From the NCBI RefSeq assembly GCF_036507355.1, contig NZ_AP027884.1: a stretch of DNA of 4,112 bases. One strand, 5' to 3'. Numbering within the stretch: position 1 is the first letter of the stretch; each line of letters begins with the position of its first letter. The stretch is from Escherichia coli. Its GTDB lineage: Bacteria > Pseudomonadota > Gammaproteobacteria > Enterobacterales > Enterobacteriaceae. This document shows, one piece after another, positions 1 through 4,112 of this stretch. The position numbers and the translations under genes are program-made. The notes under the pieces are model-generated. The model was not told the origin of the DNA. It did not search any database and saw nothing but the letters and a program-made list of their open reading frames with translations.

Positions 1-104
1 TAATGAGAGCAGAGATAGCGCTGATGTCCGGCAGTGCTTTTGCCGTTACGCACCACGCCTTCAGTAGCGTAGCAGGAAGGACATCTGATGGAAATGGAAG
101 CCAC
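1..104 (-). CDS. insA: IS1 InsA, 5' portion (GTG start at 104; frame runs off the window start and resumes at 4112)
   Basis: Reverse-strand translation [34 protein letters not shown] matches the InsA N-terminus (MASVSISCPSCSATDGVV...) including the CxxC zinc-finger cysteines. Confidence 0.85.
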
Positions 105-136
105 GCAAGCACCTTAAAATCACCATTATACACTAA

Positions 137-159
137 ATCAGCAAGTTGGCAGCATTACC
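137..159. repeat. IS1 terminal inverted repeat (IRL)
   Basis: Reverse complement begins GGTAATGCTGCCAACTT, the canonical IS1 terminus. Confidence 0.85.
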
Positions 160-294: not shown

Positions 295-317
295 GCCCGC
301 TATTAGCGGGCTTTTCT
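295..317 (+). terminator. Putative rho-independent terminator (GCCCGC-tatta-GCGGGC followed by TTTTCT)
   Basis: 6-bp GC-rich perfect stem, 5-nt loop, T-rich tail on the plus strand; lies between the IS1 end and the 3' end of the convergent Wzz-like gene. Confidence 0.5.
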
Positions 318-369
318 GCATCTGGCGTGTAACGGATGTTGCTAGAATACGGTTATTAATCGTTACAGG

Positions 370-1038
370 CTAATAAAAAGACCTGTTTAACTTATTTTTA
401 TATTCAAGTATAGATCTTTTTATTATATGATACGAGGAGGAAAAGATAACGGCTATAATTAACGTTAGAGCCATAATTAAAGCTGGTTTATACTTTTTAT
501 TCACTATTTCATTATTTATTGAAATGAAGTTTTTTTCTCCGGTGGTGTTTATTTTTGTTAATAATGCAACTTTTGCATATGTTTCAGTGCCATTTATATA
601 GTTGCTGTCCTGGTTGTTAACTATGCTTTTATAAGTTTTATAATCTTGGATGTACCAGTCATCAATAGCTTTATGGATAGCGTTTACTTCAGCGGTAATC
701 AGTGGTTTGTAACGGTCATCACCAGCCCATGACAGGATTATTTTTTTTCCTTTTTCATCTATATTTGATGTTATAGACTTGCTTTTATTGTTTATAATTG
801 ATTGTATGATATTCGCTTTACAATAAAAGTCAGACCCACAGTTAATAATCATACTTGGTGAATTAGCGATCATATTTAATTCGTACTTTATATTTATTTT
901 GTTTTTGTTTATCAGTAAGAAAATAGATGACAAAATCAATGAGAAAACAACAAACAAAATAATACTCACGATTTTTTTCTTAAGAAAGAGAAATAACTCG
1001 ATGAAATCAATATCAGGTGAATTGTTTTCCATTTTCAT
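370..1038 (-). CDS. Short Wzz/Cld-like polysaccharide co-polymerase family protein (222 aa, bitopic membrane protein: N-terminal TM, about 140-aa periplasmic domain, C-terminal TM)
   Basis: A 669-nt ORF in roughly 25% GC DNA, where stop codons are frequent, is very unlikely by chance. The N-terminus MKMENNSPDIDFIELFLFLKKKIVSIILFVV parallels the Wzz motif M..ENN...IDLI(D/E)LL.QLW.GK..II followed by a TM helix. The C-terminus KPALIMALTLIIAVIF plus short basic tail parallels the Wzz C-terminal P-rich/TM segment. Hydrophobic stretches at about residues 23-43 and 186-206. Confidence 0.55.
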   Translation of the reverse strand: MKMENNSPDIDFIELFLFLKKKIVSIILFVVFSLILSSIFLLINKNKINIKYELNMIANSPSMIINCGSDFYCKANIIQSIINNKSKSITSNIDEKGKKIILSWAGDDRYKPLITAEVNAIHKAIDDWYIQDYKTYKSIVNNQDSNYINGTETYAKVALLTKINTTGEKNFISINNEIVNKKYKPALIMALTLIIAVIFSSSYHIIKRSILEYKNKLNRSFY

Positions 1039-1130
1039 ATACCAACAATAGTTATTAAATTATAGCTTAAATAAATAAATAAAATTAAAATAGCCGTGAT
1101 GAATATTTTCGCTGATTTAGTATATTTCAT
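1035..1130 (-). CDS. 31-aa hydrophobic micro-protein (MKYTKSAKIFITAILILFIYLSYNLITIVGI), predicted single TM; stop overlaps the Wzz-like start (ATGA)
   Basis: Hand translation of the minus strand: ATG at complement of 1128..1130; TGA stop shares 2 nt with the ATG of the 370..1038 ORF, the arrangement typical of translational coupling. Below the ORF-track size cutoff. Confidence 0.45.
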   Translation of the reverse strand: MKYTKSAKIFITAILILFIYLSYNLITIVGI

Positions 1131-1282
1131 TTTAAAATCCAATCAAATAAAAACATTTTACCTATTATTTAGGTGTGAGAAAACTCCTAAAATCAATTTT
1201 TTTTTGTTTGTTTTTTGTTCGGTTATGTCTATGGAGAGAGTTGTTATCAGCCTGTATCCTTTCCACATATTTTAAGATCTTC

Positions 1283-1318: not shown

Positions 1319-1426
1319 TGAAAACGAAAAAACCACCCGGCAAGGTGGTTTTTCGAAGGTTCATTAAACCGGCAAGTTTATGAACCGTGGTAACAGGGTG
1401 TACAAGACCGCTGCCACCAAAATCGT
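1319..1426 (-). ncRNA. RNAI: RNA I antisense copy-number control RNA (about 108 nt)
   Basis: Complementary to the 5' region of RNA II. The 5' end is placed by alignment to the pMB1 RNA I start (ACAGUAUUUGG, here ACGAUUUUGG). The 3' stem-loop ACCACC-loop-GGTGG plus U-tract lies at 1325..1350. Confidence 0.8.
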
Positions 1427-2164: not shown

Positions 2165-2314
2165 ATGCCATCTGAATATGATGAACAACTGGATTCGACT
2201 GATACGCAGCTTCCCGGCGAATATGACCTTTTTGATTTAATGGCGCAGGTTACTGAAGAGAACCTGCACGCCCCGGTGGATTTTGGGCCGCCTGTCGGCC
2301 GTGAAGTGTTATAG
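2165..2314 (+). CDS. Hypothetical small acidic protein, 49 aa (MPSEYDEQLDSTDTQLPGEYDLFDLMAQVTEENLHAPVDFGPPVGREVL)
   Basis: Hand-translated ORF immediately downstream of the bom-like segment; no clear Shine-Dalgarno; no recognised family. Could be a chance ORF. Confidence 0.25.
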   Translation: MPSEYDEQLDSTDTQLPGEYDLFDLMAQVTEENLHAPVDFGPPVGREVL

Positions 2315-3458: not shown

Positions 3459-3503
3459 CTATGAGTTAGCCATATTTTCGTGCGAATTTTTCATCGGAAT
3501 CGC

Positions 3504-3526
3504 GGTGATGACTCCAACTTACTGAT
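3504..3526. repeat. IS1 terminal inverted repeat (IRR)
   Basis: GGTGATGACTCCAACTTACTGAT, the canonical IS1 terminus. Confidence 0.85.
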
Positions 3527-3914
3527 AGTGTTTTATGTTCAGATAATGCCCGATGACTTTGTCATGCAGCTCCACCGATTTTGAAAACGACAGTGACTTC
3601 CGTCCCAGCCTTGCCAGATGTTGCCTCAGATTCAGGTTATGCCGCTCAATGCGCTGCGTATATCGCTTGCTGATAACGTGCAGTTCTCCCTTCAGGCGTG
3701 ATTCATAAAGCGGCCAGCCATCCGTCATCCATACCACGACCTCAAAGTCCGACAGCAGGCTCAGAAGACGCTCCAGTGTGGCCAGAGTGCGTTCACCGAA
3801 TACGTGCGCCACAACCGTCCTCCGAATCCTGTCATACGCGTAAAACAACCAGCGCTGGCGTGATTTAGCGCCGACGTAACCCCGCTGTTCGTCCATTTCA
3901 GCGCAGACAATCAC
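3519..3914 (-). CDS. insB: IS1 InsB (shown from first in-frame ATG; in IS1 the transposase is the InsAB' fusion made by -1 frameshift at the A6C motif, here complement of about 3959..3967)
   Basis: ORF-track protein [28 protein letters not shown]...HYLNIKHYQ matches IS1 InsB; the TTAAAAAAC slippery motif is present on the minus strand just upstream. Confidence 0.9.
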
Positions 3915-3940
3915 ATCACCGCCCGGTTGTATGCGCTAGG

Positions 3941-4112
3941 TTACCGACTGCGGCCTGAGTTTTTTAAGTGACGTAAAACCGTGTTGAGGCCAACGCCCAT
4001 AATGCGTGCACTGGCGCGACATCCGACGCCATTCATGGCCATATCAATGATTTTCTGGTGCGTACCGGGCTGAGAGGCGGTGTAAGTGAACTGTAGTTGC
4101 CATGTTTTACGG
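3941..4112 (-). CDS. insA: IS1 InsA, 3' portion (stop codon = complement of 3941..3943)
   Basis: The frame continues from the window start; 34 codons + 1 junction codon + 57 codons gives 91 aa plus stop, the InsA length. C-terminal sequence ...[16 protein letters not shown] is followed by TAA. Confidence 0.85.

Follow-up and report, generated by a model that had tools for sequence, protein, structure and literature searches.

The subject of this analysis is a pair of adjacent genes on the minus strand of a 4,112-nt stretch of Escherichia coli DNA (contig NZ_AP027884.1), referred to below as the window, which is a small ColE1-type plasmid. The second gene encodes a short Wzz-like protein of the polysaccharide co-polymerase (PCP) class. 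The first is an open reading frame (ORF) of only 31 codons, to which an earlier note, written from the letters of this DNA alone, had drawn attention as an unannotated transmembrane (TM) micro-ORF translationally coupled to the Wzz-like gene. Comparison with related loci suggests that the micro-ORF is a genuine gene and that the pair is probably a distant relative of opvAB, a two-gene operon of Salmonella. The genes and candidate signals of the cassette are the following:

370..1032, minus strand: opvB-like gene for a short Wzz/PCP protein, 220 aa from the conserved ATG at 1032.
1030..1038, minus strand: stop/start junction between the two genes, ATGAAAATG in the window.
1035..1130, minus strand: opvA-like micro-ORF, with ATG at 1130..1128 and TGA at 1037..1035; 31 codons and the stop.
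1138..1142, minus strand: putative weak Shine-Dalgarno-like sequence TTGGA, 8-12 nt 5' of the micro-ORF ATG.
1155..1183, minus strand: candidate promoter predicted from the sequence, with a -35-like TTTTCT at 1183..1178, a 17-nt spacer and a -10 element TAAAAT at 1160..1155.

The micro-ORF is translated as MKYTKSAKIFITAILILFIYLSYNLITIVGI (31 aa). Its N-terminus, MKYTKSAK, places three lysines within the first eight residues and is followed by about 21 hydrophobic residues; the best 19-aa Kyte-Doolittle mean is 2.26. By the positive-inside rule, the lysine-rich start and hydrophobic stretch suggest an N-in single-pass membrane peptide. Coordinates, translation and hydropathy agree with the minus-strand ORF of transmembrane character described in the earlier note, and its unannotated status was borne out as well. 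Relatives were drawn from 20 annotated plasmid regions together with metagenome, Logan and GTDB contigs encoding proteins down to 74% identity; among plasmid relatives, the nucleotide identity of the cassette is 80-100%. A coding sequence (CDS) is called for the micro-ORF in none of the 20 annotated records, and only one of ten exact peptide variants occurs, unnamed, in a collection of 15 billion proteins. NCBIfam, PADLOC and PHROGs returned no match to the peptide. A further ORF of nine codons (MFLFDWILK, 1127..1156, minus strand) is present upstream and ends in ATGA; the earlier note took it for a chance occurrence, and it is indeed not a gene, as a T-run that varies from 5 to 8 T among relatives shifts its frame in most of them.

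The proposed expression signals are modest. An ATTGG is kept at the same distance from the micro-ORF ATG in all plasmid clades. The candidate -10 element ends 24 nt before this ATG and is paired with a poor -35; TAGGTAAAATG is kept across the plasmid clades, with ATAAAAT in the clade of 80% identity (the 80% clade). A consensus promoter scan did not pick up the candidate at 1155..1183.

The partner gene has a second in-frame ATG upstream, at 1038, whose use (ORF 370..1038) would give 222 aa. The protein contains two hydrophobic segments, TM1 (residues ~20-42) and TM2 (~184-204), on either side of a periplasmic domain of ~135 aa with two conserved cysteines. It matches Pfam GNVR (4.7e-9) and, weakly, the Wzz N-terminal domain (E=0.024), while a match to NCBIfam WzzB at positions 13-56 (E=0.0021) lies far below the family cut-off; PADLOC and PHROGs returned no match to it. 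An AlphaFold2 (AF2) model with a predicted local distance difference test score (pLDDT) of 84.9 displays TM1, a compact short alpha/beta periplasmic domain and TM2, the longest helix spanning residues 106-140. Its fold matches in the PDB are mostly polysaccharide co-polymerases, including the top nine (among them KpsE, Wzc and WzzE), and are weak (TM-score 0.4-0.49, E at least 2e-3). The topology of two TM segments flanking a periplasmic domain is a trait of the PCP-1 class and, with the GNVR match, the weak Wzz N-terminal match and the co-polymerase fold matches, is what the protein shares with WzzB, FepE and Wzz(pHS-2), of which Wzz(pHS-2) is encoded on a plasmid of 3 kb in Shigella flexneri (PMC12004945). 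PCP-1 proteins are further marked by a conserved N-terminal segment and a TM2 region rich in Gly and Pro, which Pfam Wzz and GNVR describe. The other PCP-1 trait, the long periplasmic coiled-coil extension of proteins of ~325-380 aa, is absent: PCP-1 regulators exceed the 220-aa Wzz-like protein by ~100-150 residues and carry a long periplasmic helical extension. WzzB, FepE and Wzz(pHS-2) also have no partner peptide gene.

Automated gene calls at this locus are unreliable. The annotation pipeline PGAP places the start of the Wzz-like gene differently among near-identical plasmids, giving a 663-nt CDS in some and a 600-nt CDS beginning inside TM1 in others; the resulting 199-aa versions without the conserved N-terminus are inconsistent calls (L002, L007, L010-L012, L014, L015 and L021 in our numbering of loci). 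In two plasmids, CP100036.1 and CP055592.1, a single 301-aa CDS extends over both regions, which would be expected if the micro-ORF had begun as the N-terminal part of a longer Wzz-like protein and been split off by a frameshift. The 301-aa reading, however, uses another frame across the micro-ORF and has an unrelated sequence there. It is lost in a sister plasmid through a 1-nt indel, and we consider this 'fused' CDS an annotation artefact. The conserved PCP N-terminus and TM1 are already present at the start of the 220-aa protein, and the arrangement of two ORFs is identical in every lineage; an origin by frameshift is scarcely credible.

An open frame of 31 codons in such AT-rich DNA is unremarkable by itself; its conservation is what stands out. 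All 30 related sequences that retain the 5' end of the gene (the window and 29 fetched loci, with 14 distinct nucleotide haplotypes of the micro-ORF) have exactly 31 codons. The earlier note had suggested that homologous cassettes be inspected for frame disruption, and none was found, the 30 sequences being free of internal indels. Gaps occur in one of 96 alignment columns within the micro-ORF as against 35 of 154 upstream, and the sole gap is a 1-nt deletion in L016 that still gives TAA. Elsewhere among the relatives, TAA takes the place of TGA without any shift in position. When neutral substitution was simulated along the minimum spanning tree of the haplotypes (59 substitutions), all haplotypes stayed intact with P about 0.002-0.017.

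These figures have to be set against the possibility that the ORF is a chance, untranslated frame in an AT-rich 5' untranslated region or promoter, preserved by constraint on the DNA or RNA or simply by shared ancestry. Such an origin would sit well with the base composition, with a promoter-like TTGATT-16-TATACT lying across the ORF start and with a plasmid family of fairly close kin (80-100% nucleotide identity). Another frame is moreover open in the 80% clade, where it is annotated as part of the 301-aa CDS, but a 1-nt indel disrupts that frame in a plasmid of this very clade, while the stop of the micro-ORF has been preserved through two different mutations. The simulated probabilities, the lack of indels beside the many upstream, and the recurrence of the same type of ORF beside partners of 31-42% identity in unrelated genomic contexts, described below, all speak against chance, and we hold this explanation to be quite improbable.

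Substitution patterns point in the same direction. When the window is compared with the three loci that diverge most from it (L022, L025 and L003), dN/dS by the Nei-Gojobori method (NG86) is 0.22-0.38 for the micro-ORF against 0.19-0.22 for the Wzz-like gene. In frame 0 of the micro-ORF, divergent pairs give pN/pS of 0.34-0.46 (Fisher p 0.0035-0.09); frame +1 gives no low-ratio signal and contains three to four stops in every lineage. Between the window and the 80% clade, codons 1-13 differ by six synonymous changes and one replacement. For Ser 22, one clade uses AGC and another TCC, and Thr (ACC or ACT) takes its place elsewhere. Judged from these comparisons, the micro-ORF is under purifying selection. 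The one exception to its retention is L021 (NZ_CP073010.1), in which a rearrangement at ~1340..1390, beside a recombinase-family gene, has put other sequence in the place of the promoter and of codons 1-4 of the micro-ORF. The Wzz-like gene of L021 is thereby left without an upstream peptide start (homologous window positions ~1118..1130).

The strongest evidence for a real gene is the co-occurrence of the peptide ORF with distant partners. A filter-free phmmer search with the Wzz-like protein against 1.8 billion cluster representatives recovered a small family of relatives of 211-236 aa at 19-42% identity. Among the six distant clusters with readable DNA, four have a same-strand ORF of 29-31 codons just upstream whose product combines an N-terminal motif, M-[KR]-Y-T-x-x-A-[KM]-x-[FL], with a TM helix, although the partners are only 31-42% identical. 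The peptides are as follows:

MKYTIPAKLFFGVLAVTFVCLTYLLINVVI: L030 and the Kosakonia pseudosacchari chromosome, with three replacements in K. sacchari; junction +2 nt.
(TTG)KYTTAAMAFLALLFIAFISLAYILIKVVM: L032; junction +2 nt.
MRYTIGAKFLMIITLLFIFPIGYFFISELVA: L034, in a 90% protein cluster with proteins of Providencia rettgeri; junction -4 nt (ATGA).
MRYTFSAKVFLSLMTAVFFYLSYSIYNIL: L035; junction +9 nt.

The pair is thus found on Kosakonia chromosomes and probably on those of Providencia. The two-component membrane module envisaged in the earlier note is supported by this recurrent pairing at 31-42% partner identity, and also by its correspondence to the characterised OpvA and OpvB. The same short Wzz-like family includes YkgH of E. 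coli K-12 (222 aa), whose gene is matched by tblastn with an OpvB orthologue; the cluster P0105, which lies beside ykgEFG-type genes as ykgH does, is 26% identical to the window protein. YkgH differs in that no coding-strand micro-ORF lies between betA and ykgH. In K-12 the gene (L043 680..1348; also L036) is situated between betA and ykgG/lutC, and it may be a peptide-independent member of the family.

The junction between the two genes required some revision of the original description. In the window, the TGA of the micro-ORF overlaps an in-frame ATG (ATGA, 1038..1035) and stands 2 nt before a second ATG (1032..1030), which sits 6 nt downstream of the first. The ATGA overlap with the Wzz-like gene, cited in the earlier note as a classic coupling arrangement, is therefore real in the window; it is not conserved across relatives, being limited to the window clade and close relatives, the 80% clade and L034. 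In most plasmids, as in Kosakonia and L032, the junction reads TAA-AA-ATG instead (TAAAAATG; context ...ATA TAA AA ATG...); Salmonella opvAB has TGA-A-ATG, and L035 has 9 nt. Since most relatives show TAA-AA-ATG, the true conserved start of the Wzz-like gene is ATG 1032; this second ATG is the one conserved in every lineage and is used by PGAP in many records (the 663-nt CDS). The distance from stop to start is -4, +1 or +2 nt, with a single lineage, at +9 nt, standing apart. This tight juxtaposition is compatible with coupled translation and, with the stop within -4 to +2 nt of the partner start, the genes are probably coupled on one mRNA, which would fix their ratio. TAA-AA-ATG recurs at the junction in the plasmid family, Kosakonia and L032 (a junction that corresponds to window 1030..1038, L039 1496..1503 and L032 333..340) despite partners only 42% identical, and this recurrence suggests selection on the stop/start spacing itself.

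The micro-ORF might instead be a leader, its translation serving only to deliver ribosomes to a poorly initiated Wzz-like gene by termination and reinitiation and its peptide having no function. In favour of a leader, the stop adjoins or overlaps the start in almost every lineage, no strong Shine-Dalgarno sequence precedes the Wzz-like ATG, and the hydrophobic half of the peptide changes fast. A functionless leader would not, however, account for the persistence of M-[KR]-Y-T-x-x-A-[KM] and of TM character where the DNA no longer aligns, for the prevalence of synonymous changes in codons 1-13, or for a length kept at 29-34 aa. The homologue OpvA, furthermore, is a stable inner-membrane peptide with its own lipopolysaccharide (LPS) phenotype (PMC3350482, PMC4652898). 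We regard a mere leader as unlikely.

The closest characterised system is opvAB of Salmonella enterica. OpvA (STM2209) is a 34-aa hydrophobic peptide and OpvB (STM2208) a 221-aa member of the Wzz superfamily with two TM segments and no coiled coil; the genes lie 1 nt apart and are co-transcribed, both products are located in the inner membrane, and a bacterial two-hybrid assay (BACTH) indicates that they interact (Cota et al. 2012, PMC3350482). When OpvA is produced by itself the LPS has no modal length, and OpvB by itself is a poor competitor of WzzST; with both present, the chains have 3-8 repeat units and the cells become resistant to P22, 9NA and Det7 but pay for it in virulence (Cota et al. 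2015, PMC4652898). Wzz(pHS-2) and FepE, in contrast, give very long chains where OpvB gives very short ones. No obvious homologues of opvAB were seen outside S. enterica in 2012 (PMC3350482), and a recent opvAB survey covered Salmonella only. Our literature search found no paper connecting opvAB or OpvB with YkgH or with small Col plasmids, which does not disprove that one exists.

OpvA (MKKYTFAARAFIFTLVLLFVISVFGLTISVLKGM) and OpvB (MRGENSEIDLVDVSL...EYRIEKKTMNDRA) were taken from the Salmonella record CP075030.1 (PLSDB), and both agree with the published primers; the 1-nt spacing of opvAB was confirmed in L042. The Wzz-like protein is 24% identical to an OpvB orthologue, P0136, from end to end (residues 1-212; BLASTP 1e-14). 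A library-wide phmmer search reached the P0136 cluster representative with E=1.7e-7, and reverse tblastn from P0136 recovered the plasmid family with E values down to 7e-8. OpvA and the window peptide have M-K-(K)-Y-T-x-x-A-[KR]-x-F-I and several TM positions in common, with 11 of 31 residues identical. On a hidden Markov model (HMM) of 12 non-Salmonella peptides OpvA scores 14.0 bits, a score reached by four of 20,000 composition-preserving shuffles, and it is the top non-family ORF among 543 background ORFs.

The two systems have the same gene order, strand and two-gene architecture, and their products are similar in size (31 and 34 aa for the peptides, 220 and 221 aa for the partners). Both peptides combine a basic N-terminus, K-Y-T-x-x-A-[KR], with one TM helix, both partners have two TM segments and, between them, a short periplasmic domain that lacks the long coiled coil, and both loci are low in G+C. 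The stop-to-start distance is -4 or +2 nt in the cassette and +1 nt in opvAB. The mapped opvAB promoter consists of a TAAAAT -10 and a -35 with three of six matches, and TAAAAT is found upstream of the cassette too; the proposed OpvA ribosome-binding site is TGTGG, 10 nt 5' of the ATG (PMC3350482). The systems differ in that identity is only ~24% for the partner and ~35% for the peptide, and in location, opvAB residing at the chromosomal setB locus and the cassette on ColE1-type plasmids. They differ as well in regulation: opvAB has four GATC sites and two 10/10 OxyR matches within 220 nt upstream, and no GATC was found within that distance in non-Salmonella lineages other than the window.

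Taken together, we propose that the micro-ORF is a genuine gene for a 31-aa inner-membrane peptide, standing first in an operon with a 220-aa short Wzz-type co-polymerase, and that the two are distant plasmid-borne homologues of opvA and opvB that act likewise; we would give this a probability of about three in four. The proposal builds on what is established here, namely the ORF, its conservation, the purifying selection on it, its linkage to the partner gene and the homology of that partner to OpvB. Membrane location, interaction, O-antigen shortening and phage resistance are demonstrated for opvAB only. Given the relationship to opvAB, the module is not new in kind and reveals no new mechanism.

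Several observations weigh against this proposal. The similarity between the peptide and OpvA is weak (11/31, 14 bits) and below database-wide significance, so that the link between them rests on a short N-terminal motif, synteny and the homology of the partners; with these three in agreement, common ancestry is the simplest reading. The dN/dS tests rest on few sites, and the hydrophobic half of the peptide evolves fast. Frame +2 has a similarly low ratio in some pairs, on very few sites, and is stop-free in the more divergent lineages, which makes the frame-control selection test supportive and not decisive. In L001 (NZ_JBTHVH010000005.1) and L008 (AP027812.1) the Wzz-like gene is broken, with first ORFs of 104 and 55 aa (PGAP splits the gene in L001), and the 31-codon peptide ORF is intact; this may reflect decay, sequencing error or a peptide retained alone. 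There is no upstream peptide gene in P0099 or in the YkgH type (P0105, E. coli K-12 ykgH), which implies that the Wzz-like protein is not always in need of one. A consensus promoter match, TTGATT-16-TATACT at 1146..1119, would start transcription within the micro-ORF, and a transcript from that point would exclude the peptide from the mRNA. Finally, the window does not have the regulatory layout of opvAB, with only two GATC sites (-160 and -149) and a best match to the OxyR consensus of 8/10; without a Dam/OxyR switch and on a multicopy ColE1 plasmid, the cassette probably does not undergo phase variation in its expression.

A 31-aa hydrophobic single-pass peptide encoded on a small multicopy plasmid also has the typical size and composition of a type I toxin, and the micro-ORF could in principle be a toxin-antitoxin or plasmid-maintenance toxin of the Hok/Ldr/Ibs kind that adjoins the Wzz-like gene by accident. 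It is, however, always linked to an OpvB-like gene, on chromosomes as well, and in the window Rfam finds RNAI only and no known antisense RNA family, while PADLOC gives no match. Salmonella expressing OpvA constitutively grows in LB similarly to wild type (PMC4652898). A toxin is accordingly very unlikely. All four of these rival explanations are less well supported than kinship with opvAB.

A second parallel is Iap of the Pseudomonas phage D3, which is described in secondary accounts as a 31-aa transmembrane inhibitor of the alpha-polymerase (Taylor et al. 2013, via PMC12004945 and PMC4652898). As summarised there, it resembles the peptide in being a 31-aa single-TM peptide that disturbs Wzy/Wzz-dependent O-antigen assembly and lets an incoming protein impose a different O-antigen; an analogy between OpvA and Iap was drawn by the opvAB authors themselves (PMC4652898). 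Iap differs, in a comparison by description only, in being phage-encoded and paired with a polymerase, Wzy-beta, instead of a Wzz-like protein. Scans of viral contigs with the opvA DNA pattern and the Wzz-like profile found no relatives of the cassette, tblastn of the peptide against phage genomes gave chance-level matches only, and the plasmid carries no wzy gene. Iap is reported, in the account of PMC12004945, to mimic a TM helix of Wzz. A corresponding mimicry of the partner by our peptide was considered and found no statistical support: with the peptide HMM, no TM1 or TM2 of 15 family members scored above 8 bits, and the scores were spread equally between the two. In the window alone, the peptide and partner residues 181..205 (DNA ~418..492, the pre-TM2/TM2 region) share a gapless register, with K-Y at positions 1-2 and S-Y-[N/H]-[L/I]-I at 21-25, which is not significant across the family.

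For the cassette itself, function, coupling, promoter and constitutive expression are what we infer from the comparisons above, and the following model would accommodate them. A single mRNA would start from the promoter near 1160-1183, and the peptide would be translated first, ribosomes that end at 1035-1037 reinitiating at 1032. The N-in single-pass peptide and the short co-polymerase would then assemble in the inner membrane, where the peptide would interfere with the way in which the resident WzzB or FepE controls chain length, its probable binding targets being the Wzy/Wzz machinery, its own partner, or both. The short Wzz-like protein could then set a short O-antigen modal length, with a changed cell surface and reduced adsorption of O-antigen-using phages as the outcome. 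On a multicopy plasmid that has no Dam/OxyR switch, the trait would be constitutive, with no phase variation.

The remaining features of the plasmid are these:

1324..1425, minus strand: RNAI of a ColE1-type replicon (Rfam RF00106, 101.6 bits), its transcription directed at the cassette.
3494..4112 and 1..159: IS1 element, with an InsB-like ORF at 3519..3914, frameshifted and with an internal stop.
2165..2314, plus strand: 49-aa acidic ORF, annotated in an identical plasmid as an AbrB/MazE/SpoVT-family DNA-binding protein.
300..330, plus strand: GC-rich hairpin GCCCGC-TATTA-GCGGGC followed by TTTTCT, ~45 nt past the stop of the Wzz-like gene.

The two GATC sites of the window, at 1276 and 1287, lie between RNAI and the cassette, in what we take, from the layout of ColE1, to be the region of the RNAII promoter. 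IS1 spans both ends of the window, which therefore looks like a complete circular plasmid linearised within IS1; the end coordinates of the element are those we presume from the IS1 terminal repeats and from the PGAP label in the identical plasmid ('IS1 family transposase, frameshifted; internal stop'). Near the 49-aa AbrB-like ORF (2165..2314) no obvious toxin partner was seen. The hairpin at 300..330 reads as a plus-strand terminator and could work in both directions; a terminator scan did not report it.

The cassette is present in 40 PLSDB plasmid records, from Escherichia (26), Enterobacter (5), Salmonella (3), Citrobacter (2) and Shigella, Klebsiella, Leclercia and Kluyvera (one each), the carriers being mobilizable ColE1-type plasmids. 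At a query coverage of at least 80%, it occurs in 21 of 5,426 complete E. coli genomes. The Salmonella carriers include L013 (CP082399.1, Salmonella Hadar) and two more plasmids; chromosomal opvAB is also present in many S. enterica genomes, and strains with the plasmid cassette may hold two OpvAB-type modules.

Since 2012, opvAB has served as a model for epigenetic phase variation and for trade-offs between phage resistance and virulence. The findings presented here place the pair of a peptide and a short Wzz protein in a family wider than Salmonella, whose members occur both on chromosomes and on small mobilizable ColE1 plasmids from several genera of enterobacteria. Because annotation misses the peptide gene almost everywhere, these plasmids are read as carrying one 'GNVR domain' gene. 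It is possible, at somewhat less than even odds in our judgement, that they carry a mobile, non-phase-variable O-antigen-shortening module of the opvAB type, which high-copy ColE1 plasmids have spread across E. coli, Shigella, Salmonella, Klebsiella, Enterobacter and Citrobacter, and which would give its recipients a means of remodelling their surface and withstanding O-antigen-dependent phages, with lower serum resistance as the likely price. On the same tentative footing, the M-[KR]-Y-T-x-x-A-[KR] peptides would constitute a wider unannotated family of Wzz antagonists, and Salmonella could have taken opvAB from this pool. The conserved peptide motif offers a handle on how a peptide of 30 aa disables Wzz-dependent length control. 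If the plasmid module does act like opvAB, O-antigen shortening would be horizontally transferable and would alter phage susceptibility, serum resistance and possibly the apparent serotype of the strains that acquire it.

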